In this document: positions 1,188 to 52,692 of the stretch, piece by piece
How the letters are laid out: every line of letters begins with the position of its first letter
Numbering within the stretch: position 1 is the stretch's first letter
Virus record (IMG/VR): IMGVR_UViG_3300005611_000026
Span: 1 to 58,714 of that record
Length of the DNA stretch: 58,714 nt
Strand: one strand, 5' to 3'
Origin: a virus
Taxonomy: Duplodnaviria; Caudoviricetes
Notes under the pieces: model-generated
What the model was told of the DNA's origin: nothing
Databases searched by the model: none
Seen by the model: the letters and a program-made list of their open reading frames with translations, nothing else
Position numbers and translations under genes: made by a program

Positions 1188-3191
1188 ATGAATGAGAGAG
1201 TTAGAGAGAAAACGCGCGAACGGTTTTTTAGAATTGAAAAGCGCTACGACGACGTAGGAAAAGAAATATACAGCGCGAGCTTTTCTAGTGATATAGCGTT
1301 AAAGCGTGGCTGGTATACCGAGGTATTAGAGCATACACGCGATGCTATTAACATGGAGCGCGCCCAAAATGGGCTAGTCCTTTTGCATAATCACGACATG
1401 GACAAGTCAATAGGCCGCGCGGTTAATATCGGATTGCGCGACGATGGCAAGCTAGGCGGCGATTTTACGTTTAGCAGTGACAGCGAAGCGCAGCGCATTA
1501 AAGCGCAGGTAGACGAGGGCGTATTAACAGACATCAGCATACGCTACGCAATAGAAAGCGAGCGACGCGAAGAAGATAGCGACGGCGCGGTGACGTACAC
1601 CGCTACCCGTTGGACGCCGTTAGAGGTAAGTATTGTCAGCGTACCGGCTGATTCATCCGTTGGCATAGGCCGACATTATCAAGAAGCAAACGAGGGTAAC
1701 ACCATGACCACAGACACGCCGAAGGGCGAAAACAACGCGCCAGATAATTCCGGCGTAGTCAATTTTGAAGGCGCACGACGAGCGGGCGCAACCGAGGGCC
1801 AACTAGCCGAGCGACAACGCGCGGCCGACATTGGCGCACTATTCAGCGAGCCTAAATATCAAGAGCCGGTTTATCAAGGCTTACGAAATGATGCAATTTC
1901 GCAAGGTTGGAGCGTAGAACAAACCATGCGCAAACTGATTGCCGTTTTTGGTAGCGAGAACGACGACGGCTATACACCGGCAGCGACACCGCAAACCACC
2001 GAGGGCGCACGCCACCAAGGCACAGTGCGCATTACCGAAGCGGCCGAAGATAAACTTATACGCGGCATGGAAGATGCTTGTGACGTTAAATTTAACTACG
2101 GCGACAAAGAAGCATTGCGCAGCAAGCAACAAGACAACCAATTTGTCGGTATGTCTTTTGTCGATATGGCGCGCGAGTCATTGCGACTCATGGGCTTTGA
2201 AGATGTTTACCGCCACGACGCGCGAAGCATCGTGGGTTTTGCCTTAAATCCGATGGCCATACCGTCGGGCGGCGTGCGTGGTTTAGTGGGTGCAGGCACT
2301 AGCGTATTTACTAGCCTAGTTGAAAACATCGCGAACAAGCAAATGCAAATCGGCGTTGAAGAAAGTGAGGAAACCTATCGACAGTGGGTGCGCATTGGTT
2401 CAGTTAATTCCTTTTTGCAGGAGTCGCGCGTTGACTTGTCGGGCTTTAGTGATCTCGATTTAGTACCCGAAAATGGCGAGTACAAACACGGCAAAATGTC
2501 GGACGGCAAGGAATACATAAAGGCCGAAAAATACGGCAAGCTGTTTACTATCACGCGCGAAATGCTAGTGAACGACGACCTAAACGGCATGGCGCGCGTA
2601 CCGCGTGAAATGGGCCGAGCGGCAGATCGTAAGGTTGGCGATTTGGTGTATAACATTTTGATTAACAATCCTAACATGCAAGACGGTACAGCGTTGTTTG
2701 CGTCCGGTCATGCGAACGACCGCACAAGCGGCGGCGCGCCTAGCGTGACAGAGCTTGACGCAATGAAAGTGCTAATGACTAAGCAGAAAGACCGCGACAA
2801 CAACAGCACGTCGAGCAACATTAGAATGCGTCATTTGATTGTGCCGATAGCGCTAGAAACTACTGCAATGATTTTGCAGAATGCGGCTAACGATCCCGAC
2901 CAAGCAAGCAGCAACAAAGGCGGCGGCGGCACGCGCCCCAATCCGTTTGCCAACACGTTTAGCACTATCGCGGATGCGCGACTAGACGCTGATAGCGCGG
3001 TGAAGTATTACGGCGCGGCAAGTGCTAACCAAACCGACACGATAGAAGTTGCATTTTTGAACGGCAACGAAGCGCCAGCGCTAGAAAGCGAGAACGGTTT
3101 TACCGTTGACGGTGTGTCGTACAAAGTGCGGCGCGAGGTTGGCGTTAAGGCTATCGGTTATCGTGGTCTAGTACGTAACGCAGGCGCATAA
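1188..3191 (+). CDS. HK97-type prohead protease fused to major capsid protein
   Basis: N-term LLHNHD...IGR, ISIRY, PLEVSIVSVPAD protease motifs; C-term YGKLFTITREMLVNDDL, IEVAFLNG, GFTVDGVSYKVR capsid motifs. Confidence 0.93.
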   Translation: MNERVREKTRERFFRIEKRYDDVGKEIYSASFSSDIALKRGWYTEVLEHTRDAINMERAQNGLVLLHNHDMDKSIGRAVNIGLRDDGKLGGDFTFSSDSEAQRIKAQVDEGVLTDISIRYAIESERREEDSDGAVTYTATRWTPLEVSIVSVPADSSVGIGRHYQEANEGNTMTTDTPKGENNAPDNSGVVNFEGARRAGATEGQLAERQRAADIGALFSEPKYQEPVYQGLRNDAISQGWSVEQTMRKLIAVFGSENDDGYTPAATPQTTEGARHQGTVRITEAAEDKLIRGMEDACDVKFNYGDKEALRSKQQDNQFVGMSFVDMARESLRLMGFEDVYRHDARSIVGFALNPMAIPSGGVRGLVGAGTSVFTSLVENIANKQMQIGVEESEETYRQWVRIGSVNSFLQESRVDLSGFSDLDLVPENGEYKHGKMSDGKEYIKAEKYGKLFTITREMLVNDDLNGMARVPREMGRAADRKVGDLVYNILINNPNMQDGTALFASGHANDRTSGGAPSVTELDAMKVLMTKQKDRDNNSTSSNIRMRHLIVPIALETTAMILQNAANDPDQASSNKGGGGTRPNPFANTFSTIADARLDADSAVKYYGAASANQTDTIEVAFLNGNEAPALESENGFTVDGVSYKVRREVGVKAIGYRGLVRNAGA

Positions 3192-10961: not shown

Positions 10962-11236
10962 TGTACTACAACACCACAGCCCAAGTCGGCGATCTTTTAA
11001 GAGATTACAAAGCCAAAACCATCAATCAAAATGATGCGATTGCAGTTTATATGCGAAATCGCGGCGCGTTGAGTCCCTCGCAGGTTTGTTTGCAGTTATT
11101 CAACAATACGATACCGGTAACAAGCGTGCGGCGCGCTATGACCAGCCTAACAAACGACGGTTTATTAAAAAGGCTAGACCAGACGATAGAGGGGCCATAC
11201 GGGCGGCCCGAGCATTTGTGGAAGTACATTGCATGA
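10958..11236 (+). CDS. Winged-helix DNA-binding protein
   Basis: PVTSVRRAMTSLTNDGLL...GPYGRPEHLW. Confidence 0.6.
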   Translation: MMYYNTTAQVGDLLRDYKAKTINQNDAIAVYMRNRGALSPSQVCLQLFNNTIPVTSVRRAMTSLTNDGLLKRLDQTIEGPYGRPEHLWKYIA

Positions 11237-11964
11237 CTGAACAAAACGACAATATGCGTGTGTGGCACCACGCCGACGAAACAGACCCCAGCGCCACTAA
11301 AACAGCCAAGATAGACGGCAATATGCAAACCGCGATTAGTGCGTATTGGATGTTTAAAAAGGCTACTGAGCTATTCGGGCCGGTGGGCAAAGGGTGGGGG
11401 TTTGATATTGTTGAGGAGAGGACGGACGGCGGCCACGATCAAATAGACGGCGAGGGGAATGTAATCGGTCAGGCCCGGTGGCATACCGTGCAAATCAAAT
11501 TATGGTACGAAAAGCGCGATCAATACGTCATTGCGTTTGGCCATACGCCCTATGTGCAATTTGTGCGCAGCGGCAACTATTGGCGTACCGATGGCGAAGC
11601 ACCTAAAAAATCATTAACGGACGCGCTAAAAAAGGCATTGTCTATGCTTGGATTTGCGGCTGATGTTTTTCTTGGCCAGTTTGACGACCCAAATTATGTA
11701 GAGGCGCAGGTTTCACGTGAAACGATTGATAAAGCCACCGACAAAGCCAAGGCGGCCAAAATAGAGGCCGACAAGTACGCCGAAAAACTAGCCGCTAACA
11801 TAGAGACTATGAAGGGCGCGTTATCTTTGCACGAATTTGAAAGCATTTACAAAGCGCTAATCAGAGAGGCGCACGCCAGAGACAGCAAAACCGCACAACG
11901 ACAAATAGCCGTTGCCTACGAACAGAAAAAACTGGAGTTTAAGAATGTCGCAAAGTCTAATTGA
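11233..11964 (+). CDS. Rad52/Sak-like single-strand annealing protein
   Basis: ELFGPVGKGWGF and EAPKKSLTDALKKALSMLGFAADVF motifs; ATG 11233 overlaps the upstream stop. Confidence 0.75.
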   Translation: MTEQNDNMRVWHHADETDPSATKTAKIDGNMQTAISAYWMFKKATELFGPVGKGWGFDIVEERTDGGHDQIDGEGNVIGQARWHTVQIKLWYEKRDQYVIAFGHTPYVQFVRSGNYWRTDGEAPKKSLTDALKKALSMLGFAADVFLGQFDDPNYVEAQVSRETIDKATDKAKAAKIEADKYAEKLAANIETMKGALSLHEFESIYKALIREAHARDSKTAQRQIAVAYEQKKLEFKNVAKSN

Positions 11965-12448
11965 GATAACCGGCCAATACCGCGAGCTATTAGAGGCCAT
12001 CGCGGACCCGACCACCGAGCTAAACGCAAGCAGCGCTAACGATACGCTGGACGCCATACAGCTATCATTTAATGACAAAGCGGTTGCCGTTTCTAATGTG
12101 ATACGCAAAACCGACACCACGCTAGATGCCATAGACGCCGAAATCGAGCGGCTACGCGCACGGAAAACCGTGATTAACAATAAAAAAGCGTCCGTTGTTG
12201 ATTATTTAAAGCGCAACATGGCCGCGTCCGGCATTAAAAAAATAGAGTGCCCGTTATTCACGATCACACTAGCCAAGGGGCGCGATATTGTTAACGTTTT
12301 CGATCAGCAGGCGCTACCCGACGATTATTTGAACGTTAAAACCACGATCACACCGGACAAGCCCGCCATTGCTAAAGCGCTGAAAGCTGGCGACGAGATA
12401 CCCGGCGCACGGCTAGAAAAATCGGCCGAATCACTACGGATTAAATAA
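11945..12448 (+). CDS. Siphovirus Gp157 family protein
   Basis: DAEIERL, GIKKIECPLFTI, PDKPAIAKALKAGDEIPGARL...SLRIK. Confidence 0.9.
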   Translation: MSQSLIEITGQYRELLEAIADPTTELNASSANDTLDAIQLSFNDKAVAVSNVIRKTDTTLDAIDAEIERLRARKTVINNKKASVVDYLKRNMAASGIKKIECPLFTITLAKGRDIVNVFDQQALPDDYLNVKTTITPDKPAIAKALKAGDEIPGARLEKSAESLRIK

Positions 12449-12450
12449 CC

Positions 12451-12684
12451 ATGAGAGCCAATATCAATTGGTCCGCGCTTATTGATCAAAGCGGGCTATC
12501 GGACAATCAAATTGTTCAGCACCTAAACCGCAATGGGTGCGTTTATTCGGCGCAGGCGGTGAACAAATTGCGCACCGGCCGCACCAAAGAGCCAAGCCAC
12601 CGAGTTGGACAGGAGCTAATTTTTATTCTTAAAGAGCAAGCGCGAGACGCGCCTAGCATAATCCAGGACAGCCGCACCCGATGA
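12451..12684 (+). CDS. Cro-like HTH protein
   Basis: KLRTGRTKEPSHRVGQEL; homolog of 46834-47061. Confidence 0.65.
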   Translation: MRANINWSALIDQSGLSDNQIVQHLNRNGCVYSAQAVNKLRTGRTKEPSHRVGQELIFILKEQARDAPSIIQDSRTR

Positions 12685-12992
12685 AATACACTGTTTTTGA
12701 TGCCCAAGGCATACCGCGCAGCCAGTGTTATACGCTACCCGCCGCCGAAAAAGACGCCCAAGCGTTAGCCGAAGAATACAAAGCGGGCTATTTTTTAGTG
12801 TGTCGCACGGATATTACCAAGCGGCTACGGCGTTTCGTGGTGTATTGGGACGTGGAAAATGCGACCGTTAAGCAACTACTAGAGGCCGATATAGCATTAA
12901 ATCAGCCCGATTTTTATAAACTCCCACAAATACCAGGCAGGACATTACAGCATGACAAACCAATGGAAACACCCGACCGGCCAAGTACCTAG
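12681..12992 (+). CDS. Hypothetical protein
   Basis: ATGA overlap with upstream gene. Confidence 0.6.
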   Translation: MKYTVFDAQGIPRSQCYTLPAAEKDAQALAEEYKAGYFLVCRTDITKRLRRFVVYWDVENATVKQLLEADIALNQPDFYKLPQIPGRTLQHDKPMETPDRPST

Positions 12993-13674
12993 CACTGTTT
13001 TTATTGTTTGCGCAGGCTATACGATGCGGCAATGGCACGCCGTGCGCGGTTGCTACCGCAGCCCGATCGATAAGCACAAACACGAATATACCGAGGTGTG
13101 GAGTCTGAACAAAGCATTGCGCACCAATATCGCGGATTTTGGTTTCGTGATGGATGATTTAATAGGCGAGTACCGCCGCGACCCTATCTACATAGACGAA
13201 ATCAACGCGCTAAACATACCGATACTGACAAGCACTGTAGACGATCCGGTTATCGATATGTTGCACCAGCTACCTAGCAATTTGAGCGAATTAACCGCCG
13301 AGTTTCACGAATACCCTATTTTGCCATTACGGGATAATTTGGGCGACGACTTCACGCTCGTTTATTTAGACGAGCCAGCGACCGACCAGCAAAAGCGGTT
13401 ATTTGGCAATCAGATGCTATACCTTAAAAACTCATTCCCGCTAATGTTGGCCTATGCTTATTTGATAGGCGTGAAAACCGTTTATGTGTTTGGTGCCGAC
13501 TACACGCACCCGCAAGGCCAAGCCAGAGAATCAGACCAGCCAAACGCCGAGTATTGGGTCGGCTATTTGCGCGGGAGAGGCATACAAGTTGTTATTTGTG
13601 ACGACAGCACGCTACTGGACACCCGCGACGGCCGCGCGATTTACGGCTACGGGGCAAGACAGCCAGCGCTTTAA
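12952..13674 (+). CDS. Putative DUF115/glycosyltransferase-like Rossmann-fold protein
   Basis: VFIVCAG, EVWSLN, MLAYAYLIGVKTVYVFGADY, NAEYWVG..RGRGIQV. Confidence 0.45.
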   Translation: MTNQWKHPTGQVPSTVFIVCAGYTMRQWHAVRGCYRSPIDKHKHEYTEVWSLNKALRTNIADFGFVMDDLIGEYRRDPIYIDEINALNIPILTSTVDDPVIDMLHQLPSNLSELTAEFHEYPILPLRDNLGDDFTLVYLDEPATDQQKRLFGNQMLYLKNSFPLMLAYAYLIGVKTVYVFGADYTHPQGQARESDQPNAEYWVGYLRGRGIQVVICDDSTLLDTRDGRAIYGYGARQPAL

Positions 13675-13701
13675 ATTTTAATAATGTACGGAGATAGAGA
13701 T

Positions 13702-13953
13702 ATGACCAAGAAGCAGATCAAAGAACAAGTATTGGCGATGATGTTTGCTAGTGGGTTGACGCCAGTTATTGAGGACGACTATTACGAAAACCTAAACGGG
13801 TCAACTATCGGTAGATTTTGCGAGGCGCTACGTGGACATTTCAGCGTAGAACATGATTGCTGGGCGCTGCACTTTGCCAACTTGGATTGGATAGATACGC
13901 CAAGTGAAACGGTTGAGTTTTGGGTTAATCACGCAGAACTTATTAACACCTAA
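13702..13953 (+). CDS. Cassette gene present only upstream of repeat copy 1 (hypothetical)
   Basis: Preceded by AATAATGTACGGAGATAGAGAT-ATG junction. Confidence 0.75.
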   Translation: MTKKQIKEQVLAMMFASGLTPVIEDDYYENLNGSTIGRFCEALRGHFSVEHDCWALHFANLDWIDTPSETVEFWVNHAELINT

Positions 13954-13980
13954 CTCAATAATGTAAAGGTTTAATTTTTA

Positions 13981-14074
13981 GGCGGGTAAAACCAAGGAAA
14001 CCGGATAGGGCTATAGACCGAAGCCGGAGAGCGCGAATGCTGGAGAAAGCTAAGCGGTTCCAGCCCCGCCGCCA
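13981..14074 (+). ncRNA. Candidate 94-nt structured RNA at head of the array (copy 1)
   Basis: Closing stem GGCGGG/CCCGCC followed by GCCA; internal CCGG/CCGG and GCTGGA/TCCAGC stems; the shared repeat begins just before it. Confidence 0.45.
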
Positions 14075-14117
14075 AATTAACAACAGATTCGATTCTGTAC
14101 CGTAGGAGAAACATAAA

Positions 14118-14339
14118 ATGCCAAAACTGACAGTGAATTTAGGAGATGAGATGTTTAGATTCAGCTCCGAGCAAGAGTGGATCAATAAGGCTCAGTCTTG
14201 GTTTGCCCGCTGCGAAGTACCAAAGAGACATTACATCGCAATAGATGCCGCTGGCAGGGTTTGCATAAAGGGCGCTGAATTTATGCGAGCCACAAGAGAA
14301 GATACTTACCCAATAACTGTCTATCGGTTGCTGGTGTAA
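14118..14339 (+). CDS. Cassette gene, hypothetical (73 aa)
   Basis: CTGTACCGTAGGAG junction/RBS. Confidence 0.8.
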   Translation: MPKLTVNLGDEMFRFSSEQEWINKAQSWFARCEVPKRHYIAIDAAGRVCIKGAEFMRATREDTYPITVYRLLV

Positions 14340-14366
14340 ATCTCAATAATGTACGAGGACAGAGAC

Positions 14367-14927
14367 ATGAAAACAAAGAAAGCATATGAAGCACTTGAGC
14401 GATCACTGGAAAAGCACAAGGCGCTGATTGAAGCAGATTACGATCTAGATTGCCTCAAGCGCATCAAAGACAAGATATTTACTCAGGATTTGACAGAAAA
14501 CTACGGCTGGGTAATTCCCTCTCATGTGAAAGGCAACGATAACTGGTTTTCAATCAAAAGCGAGATAAGCGCCGGAACATTTGGCGGAGAAACTAAACGC
14601 AGTATTTCTTGGGAAGATGACGACAGAGACCCTGATGGTGAGTTTCTTTTGCACATCTGTTTTTCTACCGGCGCGTATTTTTTTGGCGAAGAGTATGACA
14701 AGGATTTTTTCAAGCGATTCTGGAAAGAGTTGGAGTCATACGAGCCAAGCTTTAAAGATACCACCAACAAGGGACTTTACTTCTCTAAAGAAAAAGCCGG
14801 AAAGGTGCTCCAGAATTACGATCAAATCGTTAAAAAATATCGCGATCTTTACAAGTCCGAGGCTGATAAAAGGCGCGCGGCAAAGTTGAGAGCGGAGCTG
14901 GAAAAACTGGAAGGCTCTACAGGCTAA
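14367..14927 (+). CDS. Cassette gene, hypothetical; paralog of 48688-49239
   Basis: Junction TGTACGAGGACAGAGAC-ATG; FSTGAYFFG motif. Confidence 0.85.
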   Translation: MKTKKAYEALERSLEKHKALIEADYDLDCLKRIKDKIFTQDLTENYGWVIPSHVKGNDNWFSIKSEISAGTFGGETKRSISWEDDDRDPDGEFLLHICFSTGAYFFGEEYDKDFFKRFWKELESYEPSFKDTTNKGLYFSKEKAGKVLQNYDQIVKKYRDLYKSEADKRRAAKLRAELEKLEGSTG

Positions 14928-14953
14928 ATCTCAATAATGTACTGGAAAAGAGA

Positions 14954-15238
14954 ATGAAAATCCTGCACCTAACGCTCAAGAAAAAATGGTTTGACATGAT
15001 CGCTAGCGGTGAAAAGCGCGAGGAATATAGAGAGATAAAGCCATACTGGAATAAGCGTTTAACTAATAAATCCTATGACGCCATTTTGTTTAGAAACGGC
15101 TACTCAAAAAACGCGCCTAAAGTGCTTGTAAAGCTGGACGGAATAATGACCAGTCTTGGCATTATTCAATGGGGCGCGCCAGAGGGCGAGAGGGTTTATA
15201 TTTTGAAGCTCGGCGAAATACTGCCGCTAGATTGTTAA
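14954..15238 (+). CDS. Cassette gene, ASCH/PUA-like domain protein
   Basis: LHLTLKKKWFDMIASGEKREEYREIKPYW..RL, FRNGY. Confidence 0.85.
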   Translation: MKILHLTLKKKWFDMIASGEKREEYREIKPYWNKRLTNKSYDAILFRNGYSKNAPKVLVKLDGIMTSLGIIQWGAPEGERVYILKLGEILPLDC

Positions 15239-15256
15239 CTGTACGGAGATAGAGAT

Positions 15257-15421
15257 ATGAGCAGAGAAATAAACGACGAGACATTAAAAGAGTTTATCCA
15301 GAACCATCTAAGCGTGACGGATTTTGGCTATCTCGTTATTCCAAATGATGCCCGACTAAATGACGAGGCTTTAAGCAATATCAAGCAGAGCTTCAAAGAC
15401 TTTGTGGCGCAAGAATCTTAA
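15257..15421 (+). CDS. Cassette gene, hypothetical (54 aa; below ORF-track cutoff)
   Basis: MSREINDETLKEF...AQES* exactly fills the space between two TGTAC junctions; RBS GGAG. Confidence 0.75.
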   Translation: MSREINDETLKEFIQNHLSVTDFGYLVIPNDARLNDEALSNIKQSFKDFVAQES

Positions 15422-15439
15422 CTGTACGACAGGTGAAAT

Positions 15440-15625
15440 ATGTTTAAAGAGATTTTCTGCCCTCAATGTGGCGACAATACCCATGAGCTTCACGAGGGAT
15501 GCTGCGAGCAATGCTGGAACGAAAACCAAGCCGCGCTTGATCGTCATAACCAAGAGTACGACCACTGGAACAGGATGGATAGCGAGCGCAGAGAACAAGC
15601 TATTCGAGAAGCCATGAATCAATAA
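15440..15625 (+). CDS. Cassette gene, small Cys-rich (zinc-finger-like) protein
   Basis: CPQCG...GCCEQC; RBS AGGTG. Confidence 0.75.
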   Translation: MFKEIFCPQCGDNTHELHEGCCEQCWNENQAALDRHNQEYDHWNRMDSERREQAIREAMNQ

Positions 15626-15651
15626 TGTACTAACTGACAGACGAGGTAATT

Positions 15652-15870
15652 ATGAGGCAACAGTTACTATCTAAAGCACTTCGAGCTATATGTCTCACGC
15701 GAGATTATGTTGGCGAAAGGATGCTGCCAGCCATCAACGGCTGGGAGTGGTACGAAGTGGGAAAAGAGCTGGCCGGAGTCATACCAGAGGATGAATGGGC
15801 TAAAGAATTTTGGAAGAGAGTTGAAGCAGATAAGGATCGGCGACGGCGAGAAGGTAGGCCGCAAGGCTGA
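15652..15870 (+). CDS. Cassette gene, hypothetical (72 aa)
   Basis: RBS GAGGT after TGTAC junction. Confidence 0.75.
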   Translation: MRQQLLSKALRAICLTRDYVGERMLPAINGWEWYEVGKELAGVIPEDEWAKEFWKRVEADKDRRRREGRPQG

Positions 15871-15895
15871 ATTAACTGTACTAACGGAGAATAGC

Positions 15896-16105
15896 GTGAC
15901 TTATACAGACCTTGATATGGTTACAGCGAAAATCTACCGCATGGTTTCAAACCGGCGAGCGAGAAAGCTGCGCAAGCGCGGCGAGTTTGTGAAGTGGAGT
16001 GTCGAGCTTGACTGCTATATATGGGAGCCGTGCTGGTTGTCGCCAAACCCAAATACGTTGAACGGGCTGCCTTGGTTGTCTCGTCGTGAACAAATAGCTC
16101 TTTAG
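15896..16105 (+). CDS. Cassette gene, hypothetical basic protein (GTG start)
   Basis: TGTACTAACGGAGAATAGC-GTG; 3' part of ORF 15707-16105. Confidence 0.65.
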   Translation: MTYTDLDMVTAKIYRMVSNRRARKLRKRGEFVKWSVELDCYIWEPCWLSPNPNTLNGLPWLSRREQIAL

Positions 16106-16132
16106 CCTGTACTAACTGGAAGGTGAGTAACT

Positions 16133-16372
16133 ATGAAAGCAATTTATTTATTCTATGTTTTTAAAATAGCTCCGCGAGTTATCGACAATAAGTCTAGCTG
16201 GTTTTGGCGGTGGTCGGTTTCTCTCCTTAACTCACAAAGGGCAATAGCTGGCGACTCGTTTGCGCTGCGGTCTTTTGGTCGTCTTTATATCCGAGACCCG
16301 CACGCGCGCCCTATAGCTACCCATTGGGTCTATAGCAATTGGCACCCGTTTTGCTGGCGCAAGAATCGATAA
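16133..16372 (+). CDS. Cassette gene, hypothetical Trp-rich protein
   Basis: Flanked by two CCTGTACTAACTGGAAGGTGAGT junctions. Confidence 0.7.
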   Translation: MKAIYLFYVFKIAPRVIDNKSSWFWRWSVSLLNSQRAIAGDSFALRSFGRLYIRDPHARPIATHWVYSNWHPFCWRKNR

Positions 16373-16399
16373 CCTGTACTAACTGGAAGGTGAGTGAAT

Positions 16400-16594
16400 A
16401 TGAGCACAATAGACATTAAAGCCGTAGCAAATGTGAGACTGAATGATTTGGCCTCAGCAATTGCGGAGTTAAAGCCTTACGAGATAAATGATTTTTTTCT
16501 CATGGTTGTTGAGAGGCAAAGTAACCCCGAAACGGCGTTAAAGTGTTCTGAAAACCTTAAATGGCATTACGACAGGCTTGCGGGTGGCAAATAG
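16400..16594 (+). CDS. Cassette gene, hypothetical
   Basis: RBS AAGGTG; C-terminus differs from copy 2 (SENLKW vs SESLKR). Confidence 0.75.
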   Translation: MSTIDIKAVANVRLNDLASAIAELKPYEINDFFLMVVERQSNPETALKCSENLKWHYDRLAGGK

Positions 16595-16613
16595 CTGTGC
16601 GTTTTGAATCTAA

Positions 16614-16639
16614 TGGTACCGTAACTGATTACGGTACCA
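16614..16639. repeat. Perfect inverted repeat TGGTACCGTAA-CTGA-TTACGGTACCA
   Basis: 11-bp arms, 4-nt loop, at the right end of repeat copy 1. Confidence 0.95.
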
Positions 16640-16735
16640 AATAATGTACAGCCATCTGTACCTTCAAAGAGTAGCGTAAAAATTCTTAATTTCAACGGCG
16701 AAAGACACCTTCTAACCCATGATGGAGAAATCAAA

Positions 16736-17077
16736 ATGAATGGAAAGTGGACCCAATCGAATTTTGAAAAGTTCGACCAAGCAAACCCGCACATCTGGAA
16801 AGAGATTGAAAGGATTGCGCTCGAGGTAGCCCATAAGCACAAGAAAAAGAAATTCGCCATTAAAAACATATTCGGTTACATGCGCTACAACTCAGCGATC
16901 AAAGGCGATAATACTGAGGGAGAGTTCAAACTAGATGATGGATGGTACCCGCATTACGCCCGAAAATTCCTACGGCTTCATCCAGAGCTACCCGATTTTT
17001 TTGAGATCCGGCAGCGGATGCAAAGCTACCACGACGACAATCCGGCGGCTAAGGACGCCATGGGGAGAGACAGATGA
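16736..17077 (+). CDS. Phage hypothetical protein
   Basis: RBS GGAG; FKLDD...HYARKF...P.L..FFEIR. Confidence 0.75.
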   Translation: MNGKWTQSNFEKFDQANPHIWKEIERIALEVAHKHKKKKFAIKNIFGYMRYNSAIKGDNTEGEFKLDDGWYPHYARKFLRLHPELPDFFEIRQRMQSYHDDNPAAKDAMGRDR

Positions 17078-17328
17078 AAATAGGATCAGCACCAATCAGT
17101 AATCAAATTCCGATGTATCGAATCAAGTTAACCGGAGCCTTGGATAAACTGGATGAACTTGAGCACCAGCAGTTTGAAATGATTGCCCGAATTACCGAAG
17201 GCATGATAAGACCGCTCGATTATTTCCAAGACGTTTGTCATGTGGTGCAGGGGAATCCTATTGCTTATATGAATCGTCTGATAGCGTTAAACATTCTAGT
17301 TGTCGATCATTGGAAGAAACCGGCTTGA
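17074..17328 (+). CDS. Hypothetical protein
   Basis: ATGA overlap. Confidence 0.6.
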   Translation: MKIGSAPISNQIPMYRIKLTGALDKLDELEHQQFEMIARITEGMIRPLDYFQDVCHVVQGNPIAYMNRLIALNILVVDHWKKPA

Positions 17329-17747
17329 GTAAGAGCGTCCAAAAGCTACGCAGCGAGGCGCTAGAGGTGTCACAACTTCTTGCGAGGGTATCGGAGGCCA
17401 ATTCTCAGGGGGTCTGCAAATGCGTCTCCTGTGGCAAACTGATCTACTGGAATGAATGCGATGGTGGCCACTACATAGCCAAGGGGAAGGGCGGTAGCAA
17501 TTCGTGGGCGCTAGACATGCGTAATATCCATCCCCAATGCAAGGGCTGTAATGGCTTCCAGATGCGATACGGCAACGCAGAGGCGCGGTATACCTTCTGG
17601 ATGATCCGAAAATATGGAGTTGATCTGGTTGAAATGATGACTTTTAGCAATCCGGTGGTAAAGTGGTACGCTTTCGAGCTAGAGCAACTTATAAAGGATC
17701 GCAAAATTGAAATCAAAAAGCACAAAAAGCGAATTGGAGCTAAATGA
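17325..17747 (+). CDS. ninG: NinG/Rap-family recombination endonuclease
   Basis: CVSCG, DGGHY, NIHPQCKGCN; probable TTG start overlapping upstream stop. Confidence 0.85.
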   Translation: MSKSVQKLRSEALEVSQLLARVSEANSQGVCKCVSCGKLIYWNECDGGHYIAKGKGGSNSWALDMRNIHPQCKGCNGFQMRYGNAEARYTFWMIRKYGVDLVEMMTFSNPVVKWYAFELEQLIKDRKIEIKKHKKRIGAK

Positions 17748-18123
17748 TGTAGAGGGCTTTATTCGCGCACACACTTGGAAATTCGCAAAGACAATGCCAT
17801 GGGCACCCCATGAGTATGTATACAAGACAGCGGCGATCGATGCAGAACTATTCGATCAAGTCAAAATCTTCATCCATGAAAACGGCGTCCCCGAGTGGTA
17901 TCACTGGTCTCAATATGGCAAAAGCGGCAAAAAAGAGAGGAAGTACTTCTATCACGAAGATCATATTTACTGGTGCATGCCGCACAATATCTTTGACCCG
18001 CAGTATCCAAATCTAAAAATAATCAATCGGGCGCTACTTAGCGACTATCCAGAGAGAGACCCGCTTACCGAGGATGAAATAAAAGGAATAAAGTCCTTAA
18101 TTGTTCTTGACAATCCTCAATAG
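17707..18123 (+). CDS. Hypothetical protein
   Basis: WKFAKTMPWAPHEY...YWCM...IINRA; start uncertain. Confidence 0.7.
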   Translation: MKSKSTKSELELNDVEGFIRAHTWKFAKTMPWAPHEYVYKTAAIDAELFDQVKIFIHENGVPEWYHWSQYGKSGKKERKYFYHEDHIYWCMPHNIFDPQYPNLKIINRALLSDYPERDPLTEDEIKGIKSLIVLDNPQ

Positions 18124-18135
18124 ATCTCCTATAGT
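18107..18135 (+). promoter_or_regulatory. Sigma70-type promoter (TTGACA-17-TATAGT)
   Basis: Near consensus; member of the TTGACAATCCTCAA family. Confidence 0.85.
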
Positions 18136-18173
18136 AAACACATGAAATCGAGAAAGCCTACGGAGGGCTACCA

Positions 18174-18626
18174 ATGAAACTCAGCAAATCAGAACAGCGC
18201 ATCTTAGACAAAGCGGCACGCATCATGGAAAAGAGCGCCTATTACTACCCTCAGCAGTTCACTTCAGCCAAAGCTACTAAGCAGTATTTCTTTAATCGAT
18301 TGGCCGGTAAAGACCGCGAGGAATTTCATGTCTTATTTCTGGACAATCAGCACCAACTGATTGCTTGCGACATATTATTTGTCGGCACCATTGATTGCGC
18401 CTCAGTCTACCCGAGAGAGCTGGTAAAGCAGACGCTAGAGCATGGCGCATCTGCTATCGTACTAGCCCACAATCATCCGTCAGGCACGCTAGAGCCTAGC
18501 AGGGCGGACATTGAAATAACCAAGAAAATCAAAAACTGCATGAATGCAATCGAGGTGAGAGTTTTAGACCATCTGATTGTCGGACATGGAACTCCAGCAT
18601 CGTTCGCAGAACAGGGGCTAATATGA
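18174..18626 (+). CDS. radC: RadC-like JAB/MPN domain protein
   Basis: REEFHVLFLD, VYPRE, AHNHPSG, VLDHLIVG. Confidence 0.93.
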   Translation: MKLSKSEQRILDKAARIMEKSAYYYPQQFTSAKATKQYFFNRLAGKDREEFHVLFLDNQHQLIACDILFVGTIDCASVYPRELVKQTLEHGASAIVLAHNHPSGTLEPSRADIEITKKIKNCMNAIEVRVLDHLIVGHGTPASFAEQGLI

Positions 18627-18988
18627 TCAAGCGCATACTCTATTCAATCAATCTGTATCGACGCCAAATCAGGCGTTTACGGAATGACATTCGGGAACAG
18701 GATATTGAAATCCGAAACCTGAAAATTGAACGCGACCTTCTGCGAAGCATGATGCGTAAAGCCAAAAAGGAGCGGGACGGATGGGAGAAAATGACCCTCC
18801 GTTATCGCGCTCTAAACAAGGCGCTTTGCGAGGAAATGGAAATAGAGCCGACTATTGACTCCGAGATTGTCAAAGACTTTCAAACCATTTTCGATGATCC
18901 GCTAGGCTACGACCAGACCGGAAAGCCGGTGAAGCCAGATACTCGCGGAGAAATTGTCGACCTTAATAAATATCGAGGAAAAAACTGA
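18623..18988 (+). CDS. Hypothetical coiled-coil protein, homolog of 10584-10961
   Basis: Shared N- and C-terminal motifs. Confidence 0.7.
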   Translation: MIKRILYSINLYRRQIRRLRNDIREQDIEIRNLKIERDLLRSMMRKAKKERDGWEKMTLRYRALNKALCEEMEIEPTIDSEIVKDFQTIFDDPLGYDQTGKPVKPDTRGEIVDLNKYRGKN

Positions 18989-19764
18989 TGGCTATTTTTC
19001 AAGACGTTGCACTCCCTATGACTATCGAGGATTTCTTAGAGGGGTATGACAATGCTAAAAAGGCAATTGAAGAAATGCACGCCATCAATGACCGGCAGAA
19101 AAAAGCCTGTGACGCATTGGGGCGTCACCTCTGGAATGGCTACCCATTCAGAGACGATAAAAGCCGACAGCTGCGAGAGCTTAGACAGCGGTTTTGGCGG
19201 GGCGCTTTCGATATTACTGACTTCGCTCGCTACATGGATGATCAGGCCAGAAAGGAGTTCGACCGATCGCTAGAAAACCCGCCTGAATTTACCATGGATA
19301 ACATTCGCGCTACGTTTCTGGAGCTGGCACAAAAAGCCGACATGATGTTTAACCGAGGGGTGGTCAATATCTTTAAACACCTTTCGGATGGCTACAAGAC
19401 AAACTCCAATGAGCCCTTCAGACTTGGCCGGAAGTTCATCATGGGCTGGGGCTGCGACAACTGGAGAGGCCGCCCGAATATTCGCTACCAAAACGAGGGT
19501 CGCATTGATGATATCGACAGGGTTTGCTCAACACTCTTAAACAAGGAATGGCAGCCACGCCGATTGGCCAGCGCAATAAACGCCTCCTTTGACGAGTGTT
19601 ACCAGAATGGCGATCGATGCGTATTTGATAACGATCTATTTCATATCAAAGGGTTTAAAAATGGCTCGCTGCATTGGACTGTAAAAAGCGAAAAGCTACT
19701 GAACAAGATCAATGACCTGATCGCTGCATACTATGGCGACAACACACTGGCGAAATCAGCATGA
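18988..19764 (+). CDS. DUF4942-like protein
   Basis: PPEFTMDNIRATF, MFNRGVVNIF..LS..YKTN, FHIKGFKNGSLH. Confidence 0.8.
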   Translation: MAIFQDVALPMTIEDFLEGYDNAKKAIEEMHAINDRQKKACDALGRHLWNGYPFRDDKSRQLRELRQRFWRGAFDITDFARYMDDQARKEFDRSLENPPEFTMDNIRATFLELAQKADMMFNRGVVNIFKHLSDGYKTNSNEPFRLGRKFIMGWGCDNWRGRPNIRYQNEGRIDDIDRVCSTLLNKEWQPRRLASAINASFDECYQNGDRCVFDNDLFHIKGFKNGSLHWTVKSEKLLNKINDLIAAYYGDNTLAKSA

Positions 19765-45062: not shown

Positions 45063-45478
45063 TGAAGCTCCGTCGACTAACTAAGACTTTAATTCGACAC
45101 GAGGGAATGAGAGGGAAGCCCTACGATTGCCCTGCTGGGTTTTTAACAATAGGTGTAGGCCGAAACCTTGAAGCCAATGGTATTAGCGAGGAGGAGGCGC
45201 TAGTGCTGCTTAGAAACGACATTGTTTCTTGCTATCAGCAGTGCAAACGGGAGTTTTCTTGGTTCGAGGATTTAAATGATGTTCGACAGGAGGCGATTAT
45301 TAACCTCGTCTTTAATATCGGGCTGGATGGATTCAAGAAGTTCAAGAAAACGATCGGTTTTATCAAGCAAGAAAAATGGAGCGAAGCGGCCACCGAATTA
45401 TTGGATAGCCGCTACGCTGATCAAGTAGGAAAACGAGCTCAAGAAGTCTCTAGGATGCTTGAGACTGGAGTTCTCTGA
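45062..45478 (+). CDS. Phage lysozyme (GH24, T4-like)
   Basis: HEG.R.KPYDCPAG.LTIGVGRNL, RQEAIINLVFNIG, LDSRYADQVG.RA. Confidence 0.92.
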   Translation: MKLRRLTKTLIRHEGMRGKPYDCPAGFLTIGVGRNLEANGISEEEALVLLRNDIVSCYQQCKREFSWFEDLNDVRQEAIINLVFNIGLDGFKKFKKTIGFIKQEKWSEAATELLDSRYADQVGKRAQEVSRMLETGVL

Positions 45479-46574
45479 TTACTTCAGGCTCTAAATTAAA
45501 TTCTTTACAATCCAATAGCATACAAGCCCAATCATCCGGAGTAAGCTCGTCGACTATTTCATCAATACCCGCCTCGTCAACAGAATCAAAAGCCGCTTTT
45601 AAATCCGCCAAGTAAGTGTGAATGATGTTTTTTCCGTTCTCTTTTAGCTTATTGACCAGATCGCCCATTTTCCCCTTCTGACCTTTTGGAAACGAGTGCA
45701 TGAGAGAGATCCATTCTCCGGCGCCGTGGCCGCTACCATCCCCTAAGTCAAACGACTTTGAGAATAGATACATGCCGACCGAGTCATTTTTCTCAATCAA
45801 TTGATCGAAGAATTGTTTTTGCTCGACGCTGTAGCTTTGCGGCGTTGGATTATTGATTAGGGGCTCAAAGCCAGTGTTTTCATTCGAGAGCTGTACAGCC
45901 AGATCCATTCTTGAGTTTCCTTTAGGCCATGTTTTAAAGGCGCGGCGAATCACTGTCTTTTTGGCCATTTCCACATAGTCGCTATCCCATGGGGAGCCAA
46001 AGCCAGCTTTTACCGCTTCCGACCGGCTTTTGATATCTTCTATTTCTTCCTTGGTCATTACATCAGTCAAGAAATCCCCGCCCTTGGTTCGGGCTACACA
46101 GAACACCCCGACCATTTCCCCGCGATCTTTGCCGAATGCATCGTATTTATGCGTAGGGGAGAAGCCCGCCCCATTATCGATAAACTCATCTTTCTCATAA
46201 ACAGCATTCGCTTGCACCCATTGAATGACCCCGCCGCTAGTAGCCAGCTTGATCATTCCAACATAAGAGGGCTCAAGGTAAATCTTAGTTTTCCAGAGTG
46301 TCGCGCCGTTTTGCTTAACCTGCACCTTTCTAGGGATTAAATAAGCCAATCTCTCAGCGGGGCTCAGGCTTAATCCAATAGCCGCCACGTTGACCAGAGC
46401 GACCTTGAGCGATGCAGGGCTTTCTTCGGCTGCCTGCTTGAGATAGGAACTGCCGGCCAGTATTTGCTTTGCAAACTCCGCTTCGGCAGCGAATTGCATA
46501 CCGATTGGAGCCAGTTCCACAAATTGCGGGCGGGCGATTTCAAAGGGGTTTTTAACAATTTCCGTTTCTGGCAT
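45450..46574 (-). CDS. recT: RecT-family recombinase
   Basis: GLSLSPA..LAYLIPR, SY.GMI.LA, SPW..DY.EMAKKTVIRRAFK.WP. Confidence 0.92.
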   Translation of the reverse strand: MPETEIVKNPFEIARPQFVELAPIGMQFAAEAEFAKQILAGSSYLKQAAEESPASLKVALVNVAAIGLSLSPAERLAYLIPRKVQVKQNGATLWKTKIYLEPSYVGMIKLATSGGVIQWVQANAVYEKDEFIDNGAGFSPTHKYDAFGKDRGEMVGVFCVARTKGGDFLTDVMTKEEIEDIKSRSEAVKAGFGSPWDSDYVEMAKKTVIRRAFKTWPKGNSRMDLAVQLSNENTGFEPLINNPTPQSYSVEQKQFFDQLIEKNDSVGMYLFSKSFDLGDGSGHGAGEWISLMHSFPKGQKGKMGDLVNKLKENGKNIIHTYLADLKAAFDSVDEAGIDEIVDELTPDDWACMLLDCKEFNLEPEVIRELQSQAS

Positions 46575-46746
46575 GATTACCTCCTAGTTTTCTTTCGTGG
46601 ATTTCCTGCCTGTCGATAGTAATGTCTCTAGGCGCTTCAATAGCGAGTCGTGCGCTGCCGTTATCAATACCAATCACTGTAACTTTGATCTTGGCATCAT
46701 CAATGACGACTGTTTCTCCGACTCTTCGGTTTAGGACTAATGGCAT
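46552..46746 (-). CDS. csrA: CsrA/RsmA-family RNA-binding regulator
   Basis: LVLNRRVGETVVID..IKVTV...RLAIEAPRDITIDRQEI; RBS GGAGGT. Confidence 0.92.
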   Translation of the reverse strand: MPLVLNRRVGETVVIDDAKIKVTVIGIDNGSARLAIEAPRDITIDRQEIHERKLGGNHARNGNC

Positions 46747-47778: not shown

Positions 47779-47806
47779 TTGACAATCCTCAATAGTTGGT
47801 TACAAT
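47779..47806 (+). promoter_or_regulatory. Sigma70-type promoter (TTGACA-16-TACAAT)
   Basis: TTGACAATCCTCAA family. Confidence 0.8.
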
Positions 47807-47845
47807 GAACTTATCCAATCAAGAAAGCCTACGGAGGGCTTGCAA

Positions 47846-48037
47846 ATGAAATTCATCCAAACCAAACCAGCCAGCCATTTTTGCGGGGATTGGGAAATAA
47901 CCAATAATCGAGAGCTACCAAACGACGACACCGGCTGGTCTTTATGGCTGAACGGTGAATGGCTTGCTGATGCCAGCACCAAAAAAGCACTGATCAAAAA
48001 AGCGGAAACAATGGAAAATCAAGGAGATCAAAAATGA
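47846..48037 (+). CDS. Hypothetical protein
   Basis: GGAGG RBS after promoter. Confidence 0.7.
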   Translation: MKFIQTKPASHFCGDWEITNNRELPNDDTGWSLWLNGEWLADASTKKALIKKAETMENQGDQK

Positions 48038-48411
48038 GCATTTATCGAAAAGACACCATCATCCATTCTTACCGAGCATTCGATGTTTTTGAGCGGGAGC
48101 CCGATGGTCAGGGGATCAACCTTGTCGATGGGGAGCTAATTACCACTCCAGAAGGCCGCCGCTACACAGTTGGATCGGTCGTTGGCTATGCGCTTGAATA
48201 TAACGAATGCCCTATCAAGGCGTACCAGAGAGCCATTGAGAAAGGCCATAAAACTCACTACATCATCCAGCTCTCGATCAGCCTGACTCACTCCAGAGGC
48301 GAAAAGCGCAGGTACTTGAGAATTGACTTCGATTCTATTTATAGATTTCAAGGTCAACGATTCAAAATCATCCCAACGCCAAACGACAACCTAGCATTCG
48401 AGGAGGTGTGA
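48034..48411 (+). CDS. Hypothetical protein
   Basis: RBS AAGGAG. Confidence 0.7.
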   Translation: MSIYRKDTIIHSYRAFDVFEREPDGQGINLVDGELITTPEGRRYTVGSVVGYALEYNECPIKAYQRAIEKGHKTHYIIQLSISLTHSRGEKRRYLRIDFDSIYRFQGQRFKIIPTPNDNLAFEEV

Positions 48412-48412
48412 T

Positions 48413-48688
48413 ATGAAACTGGAAGCTAAAACTGCGAAAGCAATCTCAGACATAATTAATGCGATTACGGTTGCTGAGAAAATGGCGATTCGCTACAAAA
48501 CCGGAGCCTCGGAATTAAGCGCCACATGGGAGCGGGGCGCATCTGTCAACCGGTTGTTGCTGGCTGATCTATTCGGGATCTGTTTGCCAACTCTCGAAGT
48601 CGAACGCATTGAGCTGCAATACAGCCAAGAAATGCAAACCATGCTGAAATTCAAAACCAACTACTACACCGAGCTACTGGAGGCATAA
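48413..48688 (+). CDS. Hypothetical protein
   Basis: RBS GGAGGT. Confidence 0.7.
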   Translation: MKLEAKTAKAISDIINAITVAEKMAIRYKTGASELSATWERGASVNRLLLADLFGICLPTLEVERIELQYSQEMQTMLKFKTNYYTELLEA

Positions 48689-49239
48689 TGGGTACCAAAA
48701 AACAATATGAAGCACTTGAGCGATCAATAAGAAAGCATAAAGCGCTGATTCAATCGGATTACGGTCTAAGCATTTTTACAACCATTAAAGACCGGATATT
48801 CAAATGCGATTTGATTGAAAACTATGATTGGGTAATCCCAAGCCATGTCGAAGCAAACGACAATTGGTTTTCGATCAAAGACGATGTAACCGCTGGCACC
48901 TTTGGATCTGGAACCCCTAGAACAATTTCATGGGAGGATACCGACAGCGATCCAAACGGCGCGTTTCTCCTATCCATTAGATTCCCTACTGGCGGTTATT
49001 TCTTCGATAAGAAAGGAGACCAGGAATTTTTTAAACAATTCTGGAATGAGCTGCGAGAGCTTGAGCCCGACTATCAAGACACAGCAAACAGGGGTCTCTA
49101 TTTTACAAAAGAGAAAGGCGGGAAGGTGCTCCGTGAATACGATCGGCTTGTTAAGAAATATCGAGATTTGCATAAGTCGCAAGCCAACGAGCGGCGGGCG
49201 GCTGAATTGAGATCTGAACTGGAAAAACTGGAGGGGTGA
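48688..49239 (+). CDS. Diverged paralog of cassette gene 14367-14927
   Basis: YEALERS..KHKALI..DY, ENY.WVIPSHV..NDNWFSIK, ELEKLEG shared. Confidence 0.88.
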   Translation: MGTKKQYEALERSIRKHKALIQSDYGLSIFTTIKDRIFKCDLIENYDWVIPSHVEANDNWFSIKDDVTAGTFGSGTPRTISWEDTDSDPNGAFLLSIRFPTGGYFFDKKGDQEFFKQFWNELRELEPDYQDTANRGLYFTKEKGGKVLREYDRLVKKYRDLHKSQANERRAAELRSELEKLEG

Positions 49240-49595
49240 TGAGCGATTTTAGAATAGTAGAAACTATCGATATCTGGCGGGTAGTATCGAATACCGATTT
49301 AACTGAGGGGCGCGGGAAAAGTGTTCTATTGAACAATTGTAGGTGCAAGGCCACTGCCAAGCGGCTGGCTAAGGGCAAGGGGGTCATGGGAACGGATGCC
49401 CTGGTCAGGAAGGCTCTTGGTTTTAAACTCTACGGCGACCACTTCTATTACGCGCCATCCTATTTAGTACAGCCCAGTCGAGACGACATAGAGGCACAGC
49501 GGATCATGGATCAAAGGGAGGAGGCGGTTCGTAAGGCTAAAGAGGCTGGGTTGACTGAGCTTGATATAGAGCTGATTAGGAACAGCAAACCATGA
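49236..49595 (+). CDS. Hypothetical protein
   Basis: NTDLTEGRG, ATAKRLAKGKGVMG; RBS GGAGG. Confidence 0.75.
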   Translation: MMSDFRIVETIDIWRVVSNTDLTEGRGKSVLLNNCRCKATAKRLAKGKGVMGTDALVRKALGFKLYGDHFYYAPSYLVQPSRDDIEAQRIMDQREEAVRKAKEAGLTELDIELIRNSKP

Positions 49596-49954
49596 AGTTA
49601 AACCTCGAAGCCATGACCAAGGCCGGTATCGACGTAGATGCAATCAAGGATTTTATCGAGCACCGCAAGACCATTAAAAAGCCGCTAACGCAGCGGGCGC
49701 TGGAAATGAATATGCGCGAAGCATGGAAGGCCAAGAAGCTCGGTATCACGCCAGAACAGGCCATTGATTACACCATCTTTAAATGCTGGATAGGCGTCAA
49801 CTGCTCCCACATGAGCGATCGAATCAATGAGGTGCTGGAGCTATTCGGGGAGGAGCCGGTGAAAAAGCAGTCCACTCGATCAATGTCACTCAGCGAGAAT
49901 TTGAATGATCGATCGTGGGCAAATAAAGTTGTAAAGCTAGAAAATAATTCTTGA
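49592..49954 (+). CDS. Stand-alone C-terminal domain of phage replication initiator-like protein
   Basis: DFIEHRKTIKKPLTQRA...EQAI...W.G; ends DRSWA. Confidence 0.55.
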   Translation: MKLNLEAMTKAGIDVDAIKDFIEHRKTIKKPLTQRALEMNMREAWKAKKLGITPEQAIDYTIFKCWIGVNCSHMSDRINEVLELFGEEPVKKQSTRSMSLSENLNDRSWANKVVKLENNS

Positions 49955-49979
49955 CAATAGTCTATAGATGCCCCACAAT
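49951..49979 (+). promoter_or_regulatory. Sigma70-type promoter (TTGACA-17-CACAAT)
   Basis: Preceded by AAAATAATT like the other early promoters. Confidence 0.65.
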
Positions 49980-50007
49980 TAAATCTCAAACTAAGGAGGA
50001 ATCCAAA

Positions 50008-50355: not shown

Positions 50356-50430
50356 GGTCAGGAAGCGAACTCCCCGCCATGCAGCGGGGAAGCCGCACCG
50401 CCTTAAAAACAAATACCGCCGGAGAGATAA

Positions 50431-50616: not shown

Positions 50617-50750
50617 TCAAATCGGCGGCTGGTACTGGAAAACAGTCAACGGCGAAATCAAAAATCTCTATCTAAAAAATATGACTCAGGGGAACGCTTT
50701 TACATGCCAGAACTGCAAAACCAAGATGGTATTTCGAGAGGGGATACTGA

Positions 50751-51712: not shown

Positions 51713-51719
51713 GGTTTTA

Positions 51720-52666: not shown

Positions 52667-52692
52667 ATCTCAATAATGTACTGGAAAAGAGA

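Follow-up and report, generated by a model that had tools for sequence, protein, structure and literature searches.

What brings ten small, unrelated phage genes into one row in which every boundary carries the same pentanucleotide? This question is raised by a linear viral contig of 58,714 nt, the entire virus record IMGVR_UViG_3300005611_000026 of the IMG/VR database (completeness estimate 83%); this whole stretch was analyzed and is called the window below. On its plus strand, segment 13672–16661 contains ten small co-oriented genes, designated a1–a10, and one unit without an assigned open reading frame (ORF). The junctions share a consensus composed of a stop codon, 0–10 nt mostly ending in TAA or TAAC, the core TGTAC, a purine-rich Shine–Dalgarno sequence (SD), and a start codon. 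This arrangement is a genuine, non-random and conserved feature that marks the seams at which genes are shuffled. The initial annotation of this DNA had proposed an undescribed cassette system; the feature itself stands, but motif-mediated shuffling has already been described for PeSLs (promoter-early stem-loops), the conserved intergenic motifs of T4-type phages, and proposed for lambdoid boundary sequences.

The TGTAC Motif at the Gene Junctions

TGTAC was found within 40 nt upstream of the start codon in 10/10 array genes (19/19 together with the second copy of the array, which repeats segment 13976–16612 at 51715–54351) and in none of the 71 other plus-strand genes of the contig (Fisher test, 7e-20). 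The initial annotation had allowed for a signal that also precedes many non-array genes; on the plus strand of this contig, it precedes none. The array spacers have a length of 18–27 nt (164 and 144 nt at the ORF-less unit), whereas the median gap elsewhere is 3 nt, and genes outside the array mostly overlap or abut. As a control, the same junction filter was applied to 309 other phage loci (~3 Mb), where the top 3-kb cluster contained four motifs, not located at junctions, compared with eight and seven in the two arrays.

In the window as a whole, counted on both strands, TGTAC is not enriched (58 occurrences versus 62.9 in shuffled sequences). On the plus strand, 12 copies lie in 13685–16661, 11 in or just after array copy 2, and 10 in the other 52.8 kb. 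Outside the arrays, the sense-strand motif is approximately two-fold depleted (10 occurrences versus 19–26 expected, the lower value from a third-order model; rank 30 of 1024), whereas the antisense motif is not (24 versus 24.2). This strand bias gives a weak hint of a function on the sense strand or in RNA.

The eleven TGTAC positions listed initially and the near-core TGTAA at 13962 are all correct, and one additional plus-strand TGTAC is located at 16657. It had also been noted that the array ORFs contain no TGTAC, which is true but uninformative, as only ~0.5–1 occurrence is expected. The observation that one unit precedes copy 1 only was reproduced, since a1 (13702–13953) has no counterpart in copy 2, and the start of a8 was corrected to GTG at 15896. 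The candidate RNA proposed for 13962–14096 was not supported: its fold has z values of −0.94 and −0.25, and no Rfam match was obtained at E values up to 1. The ORF-less unit contains a possible 22-codon ORF that begins from ATG at 14037 with GGAG in front.

Three other meanings of the motif were considered and rejected. A sigma-70 promoter formed by AATAAT-GTAC is contradicted by the restriction of this hexamer to AATAATGTAC-type linkers (6/12 cores), for which the scan gave no −35 partner. Reading GTAC as a target of restriction or methylation would leave its position unexplained, and contig-wide this tetranucleotide is low by a factor of only about two. As for ATG-TAC or CTG-TAC as the true starts, these are in frame for a1, a3, and a5, but a stop codon intervenes before a4 and a6–a10, and no SD stands in front. 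Seams of this precision would not be expected from a Chi-like site.

Sequence Identity of the Linkers

The linkers themselves contain footprints of exchange. A linker of 23 nt is identical before the unrelated genes a9 and a10, another of 21 nt, reaching into the start codon, before the unrelated a1 and a5, and a third of 18 nt after the unrelated a2 and a3. Across all 66 pairs of cores, the median shared length is 6 nt; only the 5 nt of TGTAC are common to all linkers, and 10–23 nt are shared between linker families. The left halves (…TCAATAA, …TTAAC, …CC) and the right halves (GGAGATAGAGAT, TAAC…) assort independently. The part of each module between TGTAC and the ORF is a purine-rich SD leader of 7–21 nt.

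Related Arrays in a Marine Metagenome

Relatives of the array were found in one public marine metagenome run (referred to as X1), from which 31 Logan contigs were aligned to the region at 80% likeness. The end points, pieces and differences considered here are those listed for these contigs; the same set comprises a further 17 loose ends, together with 34 more pieces and another 237 differences. X1 contains 5% of the sampled words of the region (share 0.05), so it is probably not the source sample.

The most informative X1 contig has a length of 3113 nt. Its start, in plus orientation, consists of 25 nt of the a7-type leader counted from its TGTAC, followed by a10, a stop codon, CTGTAC with the a8 leader, and a8. 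After a8 come TAGCC-TGTAC, a new purine-rich leader (AAAAAGAGAGTTGAT), and ATG, and the remaining ~2.6 kb match nothing in 11000–19000. The order of the modules is consequently a10, a8, and a new gene, in contrast to a8, a9, a10 in the window. The position of a10 behind the a7-type leader represents a swap at the start codon, away from the core. Two further contigs depart from the core downstream of a2 (14354), one continuing at 13668 and the other at 16656; no coverage of a3 was obtained in X1. In addition, the X1 contigs that lead into a2 and a6 come from different upstream genes, the ends of which read ...AAATAA at 14095 and ...TTTCAATAA at 15423, respectively.

Among the 14 visible X1 end points in the array, seven are no more than 1 nt away from an edge of TGTAC, two lie at TGTGC, and three at start codons; one lies 17 nt upstream of a core, one is a 9-nt contig tip, and none falls in an ORF body. 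The stop–TGTAC–SD–start arrangement is present at three novel junctions. Thus, the relatives vary in both the order and the content of modules, and the core is conserved at the new seams. According to the initial annotation, a fixed order and content or breakpoints placed at random relative to TGTAC would have spoken against its cassette system; the X1 relatives keep neither order nor content, and their visible end points lie in linkers, half of them at most 1 nt from the edge of TGTAC.

Promoters, DNA Structure and a CsrA Homolog

A sigma-70-type promoter matching 11 of 12 consensus positions is located at 47779–47806 on the plus strand, ~4 kb upstream of copy 2, and heads the rightward operon that leads into this copy. 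It faces a leftward promoter with a 12-of-12 match (46815–46787), which stands before the genes of a CsrA homolog and RecT. The scan returned six sites in 7.5 kb versus 11.6 in shuffled sequences. Within the array, this simple scan yielded no match of 10 or more of 12 positions, but only two weak 9-of-12 sites on the plus strand that are not at most junctions, in agreement with the reported lack of internal promoters. DNA folding of eleven 80-nt junction windows (the ten internal ones and that of a1/TGTAA) gave z values from −0.61 to +1.66, i.e., no significant structure. The array end alone folds (z = −4.99), owing to a 24-nt hairpin and an inverted CTGTAC pair.

The presence of the CsrA homolog drew attention to the leaders. 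The pattern AC-N0-2-GGA precedes 7/10 array genes and 9/71 others, and GGA is found within 25 nt upstream in 8/10 array genes versus 35/71 others. When read by eye, ACGGA, AGGA, CTGGA or AGAGA occurs in 8/10 array leaders, the motifs being located at the SD. These four motifs are among the primary or secondary CsrA sites given in Table 2 of PMC4066749. The motif matches suggest that the array linkers might serve as a translational operator for the phage CsrA homolog, which is considered a lead rather than a finding. If true, the link would add a case of a phage Csr-type repressor acting on its own early genes.

Proposed Mechanism and Alternative Explanations

The favored explanation, to which about an even chance is assigned, is linker-mediated modular shuffling in a hyperplastic, nin-like accessory array of one-gene modules. 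Each module consists of TGTAC, the 7–21 nt purine-rich SD leader, an ORF, a stop codon, and 0–10 nt. The modules would be read as one polycistronic transcript from the upstream sigma-70-type promoter, each being translated from its own ribosome-binding site. The linker would be an expression element common to all modules and hence also a patch of short homology (10–23 nt between families), at which RecT or the exonuclease with the SSB and NinG-like proteins, or template switching, could exchange, delete, duplicate, and reorder modules. Genes for all four, i.e., RecT, an exonuclease, SSB, and a NinG-like protein, are present on the contig. With less weight, the core and its flanks may be kept as a translation-control site, the best candidate being an operator for the CsrA homolog. 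Recombination at short homologies is preferred over strict crossover at the core because the leader of a10 was exchanged at the start codon in X1 and because identical leaders are shared by unrelated ORFs. Between the two mechanisms suggested in the initial annotation, recombination at short homologies is favored by the identical 18–23 nt linkers and the a10 swap. No recombinase was found in the scanned ORFs.

Several points weigh against linker-mediated shuffling as formulated here. A 5-nt core with linkers of 10–23 nt is probably short for annealase-driven recombination, and a dedicated enzyme may be supplied in trans. Where the core is the sole shared sequence, homology necessarily ends at the core edge, which does not imply that strands cross there. 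The comparative evidence comes from one run, with short assembled contigs aligned at 80% likeness and the end points, pieces and differences listed for them. As for the operator, the TGT of the core is unexplained by CsrA-type motifs, which overlap any SD, and 2/10 array leaders lack GGA. The Logan contigs were presumably built with 31-mers; if so, linkers of up to 25 nt should cause no false joins.

A purely RNA-level meaning of TGTAC, namely a translational operator of the CsrA or RegA kind or a processing site of an endoribonuclease, would reduce the shuffling to ordinary mosaicism at gene boundaries, in which the linker is irrelevant. Such an explanation is possible but rather unlikely. 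It agrees with the strand specificity of the motif and its fixed place just 5′ of the SD (16–17 nt to the start in 5/10), with the junctions being as unstructured as initiation regions, with the phage CsrA homolog and the CsrA-type motifs, and with the depletion of the sense-strand but not the antisense motif outside the arrays. However, this depletion is modest, the upstream genes of the same operon (47840–51712) are not preceded by TGTAC, and the identical linkers on unrelated ORFs, together with the a7-type leader on a10, point to exchange within the linkers themselves. An artefact, whether chance, recent tandem amplification of one junction, or mis-assembly, is highly improbable. The contig does carry two complete structural modules and a nearly identical 2.6-kb repeat, perhaps a path through two phages, but ten unrelated ORFs lie between the cores, and the enrichment is extreme even though the copies are non-independent, with 10/10 genes preceded by the motif in a single copy. 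Moreover, an artefact is contradicted by X1, where three novel junctions have the same arrangement, and the control phage loci peak below the two arrays.

It is also improbable that a dedicated site-specific system without hairpins, a kind of "mini-integron", uses TGTAC as its crossover core and moves single-gene circles by means of a recombinase or nuclease whose gene lies elsewhere or is one of the unannotated ORFs. In accordance with such a system, an invariant 5-nt core separates variable left and right halves, and the halves mostly remain attached to the same ORF, as seen for a2 and a6, which retain their leaders after new upstream genes, and for a8, which retains its two flanks. The order of modules is altered, beyond mere content; an inverted CTGTAC pair closes the array, double cores follow both copies, and cores or near-cores bound the ORF-less units. 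On the other hand, scanning of the ORFs against Pfam, PHROGs, and NCBIfam revealed neither a recombinase of the tyrosine or serine type nor a transposase or an HUH enzyme, a negative result that leaves out ~20 ORFs, chiefly of the structural regions, and concerns two possibly incomplete phage genomes. No conserved binding arms or hairpins surround the internal cores, identical leaders occur on unrelated ORFs, one leader was swapped at the start codon, and distant homologs of a3 (0/93) and a4 (1/80 upstream, 0/80 downstream) have no nearby TGTAC. The specific variant in which modules would leave and enter either in the form of small circles or through precise cutting and joining at the 5 nt of the core, with an unannotated ORF, the NinG-like nuclease, or a host factor as the enzyme, for example, and with the end cores as the entry platform, is quite doubtful.

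Comparison with Known Systems

Integron cassette arrays consist of co-oriented promoterless one-gene units with an upstream promoter, a core at each boundary, and variable content and order. The TGTAC array likewise contains co-oriented, apparently promoterless one-gene units with a short core per boundary and with varying content and order. In contrast to integrons, it has no attC-like hairpins at the internal junctions, no attI-Pc platform, and a 5-nt core without flanking binding sites, and it is phage-borne; in addition, no IntI or other tyrosine recombinase is encoded by the scanned ORFs (~20 ORFs, chiefly of the structural regions, were left out, and the record is ~83% complete). The array is not an integron, since the hairpins are absent at the internal junctions and no IntI-like gene occurs in the scanned ORFs, as the initial annotation had stated when drawing this analogy.

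In T4-type phages, PeSLs are described as mediating the modular shuffling of small genes, including via mini-circles (Arbiol et al. 2010, PMC2839356; Comeau et al. 2014, PMC4122927). As described there, PeSLs resemble the array in that a repeated motif extends from the stop codon of one small gene to the SD and start codon of the next, clusters in a hyperplastic region made up of non-essential ORFans, and coincides with gene insertions, deletions, and replacements between close relatives. The same descriptions define a PeSL as a strong sigma-70 promoter with a terminator stem-loop, whereas the array has no good promoter on the simple scan and no stem-loop at its ten internal junctions; unlike the composite PeSLs, its linkers have 5 nt common to all and 10–23 nt common to subsets. 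The hosts of the motifs also differ, a T4-like myovirus in one case and a lambda-like siphophage in the other. Mini-circles were demonstrated for PeSLs (PMC2839356; PMC4122927). The array is not a strict PeSL, having neither the promoter nor the stem-loop, but seems to function like one. With a 5-nt core in an 18–27 nt linker at every seam, it is a simpler system than the PeSLs of T4.

The nin region of lambdoid phages, which contains small dispensable genes between replication/recombination genes and NinG, is similar to the array in its layout. For lambdoid phages, it was proposed long ago that short conserved sequences at the gene boundaries serve in homologous recombination (PMC3029335), with help from phage annealases (PMC3945230, PMC2327257). 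Lambdoid phages show gene-by-gene mosaicism, as the array does; the array differs in that a single motif with a uniform spacer occurs at every boundary, including the new boundaries of its relatives. The array is best regarded as a minimal counterpart of the PeSLs of T4 or of the boundary sequences of lambdoid phages. The swapping of single accessory genes in phages has so far been explained mostly by rare illegitimate recombination and selection, and many phage accessory genes are expected to serve host takeover or counter-defense. The array allows the selection of short functional linkers as recombination seams to be tested directly.

The RegA protein of T4 is a translational repressor of phage early genes. 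Targets of CsrA/RsmA are characterized by an A(N)GGA site at the SD, additional sites at a distance of 10–60 nt, and binding of the protein. CsrA/RsmA regulons (PMC4066749) and the RegA system share with the array a short RNA motif located at the SD of many genes or directly 5′ of it. The phage that carries the array also encodes a CsrA homolog. The TGT of the core lies outside every site listed in PMC4066749. CsrA motifs overlap ordinary SDs, and the array sites are candidates predicted from the sequence.

Gene Context and Contig Architecture

The features of the array and its surroundings are given in Table 1. The window contains two unrelated structural gene sets (head-tail modules) on one contig. 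The two array copies are separated by an offset of 37,739 nt and differ at six of 2637 nt, five of these differences being clustered within 16549–16562. Most probably, the assembly followed a path through two phages with this array in common, one of ~37.7 kb, circularly closed in the assembly, and the other partial; alternatively, the contig may represent a true tandem arrangement. In either case, a near-identical array is located on two different phage backbones.

The array lies between the SSB and NinG-like genes, in an early rightward operon of marine siphophages, a location that we take to correspond to the nin region of lambda. On the 3′ side of copy 1, the NinG-like gene is followed by RadC, methylase-like genes, ParB-like genes, and the terminase.

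Table 1. Array modules, junctions, and context genes in the window (positions in nt).
Feature	Position	Strand	Remarks
Structural set one	capsid-protease fusion 1188–3191; tape measure 5280; tail fiber 7801		
Exonuclease	11086–11964	+	phrog_7838; 5′ of copy 1
Junction 0	13672–13701	+	stop of 240-aa ORF, linker, TGTAC 13685, SD GGAGA; TGTACGGAGATAGAGATATGA identical at the junction with TGTAC 15240
a1	13702–13953	+	83 aa, no family; precedes copy 1 only
ORF-less unit region	13954–14117	+	near-core TGTAA 13962, TGTAC 14096, SD; in both copies from 13976
a2	14118–14339	+	73 aa; X1 relative varies mainly at third codon positions
Junction	14340–14366	+	TGTAC 14350; TAAATCTCAATAATGTAC common with 14938; X1 joints depart at 14354
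a3	14367–14927	+	186 aa; family of unknown fold; paralog at 48688–49239
Junction	14928–14953	+	TGTAC 14938
a4	14954–15238	+	94 aa; phrog_625, predicted ASCH-like fold
Junction	15239–15256	+	TGTAC 15240
a5	15257–15421	+	54 aa
Junction	15422–15439	+	TGTAC 15423; in X1, a different upstream gene ends in ...TTTCAATAA right before the core
a6	15440–15625	+	61 aa, Cys-rich
Junction	15626–15651	+	TGTAC 15626, stop codon TAA abutting the core; same leader fronts a10 in X1
a7	15652–15870	+	72 aa
Junction	15871–15895	+	TGTAC 15877; X1 joint 16594 to 15876
a8	15896–16105	+	69 aa, GTG start
Junction	16106–16132	+	TGTAC 16108; in X1, new leader and ORF after the core
a9	16133–16372	+	79 aa
Junction	16373–16399	+	TGTAC 16375; 16373–16395 (23 nt) identical in junction 16106–16132
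a10	16400–16594	+	64 aa
Array end	16595–16661	+	degenerate core TGTGC 16596, 24-nt hairpin insert 16613–16636, TGTAC 16645 and 16657
NinG-like protein	17235–17747	+	PF05766, 3.6e-14; 3′ of copy 1
Structural set two	terminase 24858; portal 26130; capsid protein 29245; tape measure 33672; fiber 36591		
RecT-family annealase	45450–46574	-	
CsrA homolog	46552–46746	-	64 aa from ATG behind GGAGG; PF02599, 3.4e-16; leader with ACGGA and ATGGA
SSB	51257–51712	+	PF00436, 2.3e-38; directly 5′ of copy 2
Array copy 2	51715–54351	+	ORF-less unit and a2–a10; six differences from copy 1

At the array end of copy 1, TGTAC 16645 and 16657 belong to two CTGTAC copies in inverted orientation, separated by a 4-nt spacer (16646–16661). 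The homology between the copies stops at ccaaataa, the 5′ edge of TGTAC 16645, and copy 2 continues with GGGGG and ATG. The perfect 24-nt hairpin at 16613–16636 (GGTACCGTAA...TTACGGTACC with flanks), located 3′ of a10 in copy 1, is exactly missing in copy 2 and looks like a tiny palindromic insertion. Double TGTAC motifs, 9–12 nt apart, occur after both copies (16645–16661 and 54612–54625) with unrelated flanks; they are inverted after copy 1 and direct after copy 2, where they perhaps belong to the first codons of a 209-aa ORF.

Genes of the Array and Their Homologs

Between X1 and the window, 19 of the 34 listed substitutions in a2, a5, a8, and a10 are at third codon positions and 16 are synonymous; this third-position bias shows that the array ORFs are real genes. 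In the Pfam, PHROGs, and NCBIfam databases, the only match of the array genes was phrog_625 for a4. The predicted structure of a4 (pLDDT 92) has ASCH domains as all of its top Foldseek matches (probability 1.0, E value 1.5e-3), so the model indicates an ASCH-like fold. For a3, 12 homologs with E values up to 0.001 were found among 72 candidates, and many further ones exist in metagenomes; its model (pLDDT 87) had no fold match in the PDB and no match in the Atlas. An exact look-up of the ten array proteins showed that 6/10 are on record, in clusters of one or two members. The a2 record and an a3 relative with 86% identity are each located on an ENA contig of 1193 nt, which may be one and the same contig. 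An a2 relative (P0015) is encoded by a Logan contig of 10,976 nt.

At the loci of a4 homologs, TGTAC occurs within 50 nt upstream in 1/80 cases and within 45 nt downstream in 0/80. At those of a3 homologs it was found in 0/93 on either side (93 of 108 loci, the others lacking a flank or a match). No other array gene was detected at the a3 and a4 homolog loci, barring one weak a9-like match in locus L128. A paralog of a3 with ~70% nucleotide identity is located at 48688–49239 of the same contig, amid overlapping genes and without TGTAC. Since the distant homologs of a3 and a4 and the a3 paralog lack TGTAC, the linker is a property of the array of this lineage rather than of the genes. The a4 homologs of some other phages (L145:2654–3293, L141:7934–8293, L131, L133, and L143) have GC-rich mini-hairpin motifs of the GCGAAGC type on both sides, which may be a different lineage-specific junction element.

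Wider searches returned little. No relatives turned up in IMG/VR with a3, a10, NinG, or the 258-aa methylase-like protein as the query. Scans with 14-mer and 17-mer linker patterns gave only chance matches, none of which resembled the window in BLAST or had junctions arranged as in the array. A scan of genome contigs gave only two unrelated fragments of metagenome-assembled genomes, and no cultured phage matched a2, a8, or a10 in TBLASTN searches. In the BLASTN search of the region, the sole match was a Cellulophaga phage, over 95 nt of a4.

Just past copy 2, on the minus strand, 55770–57251 encodes a protein of 493 aa, the N-terminus of which matches head-binding domains of tailspikes (7eeq, E value 4e-9). 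In addition, CCAGG, CCTGG, CCGGG, and CCCGG are nearly absent outside the arrays (3, 1, 1, and 5 occurrences, respectively, versus 28–45 expected), an indication that a CCNGG-type restriction site is strongly avoided.

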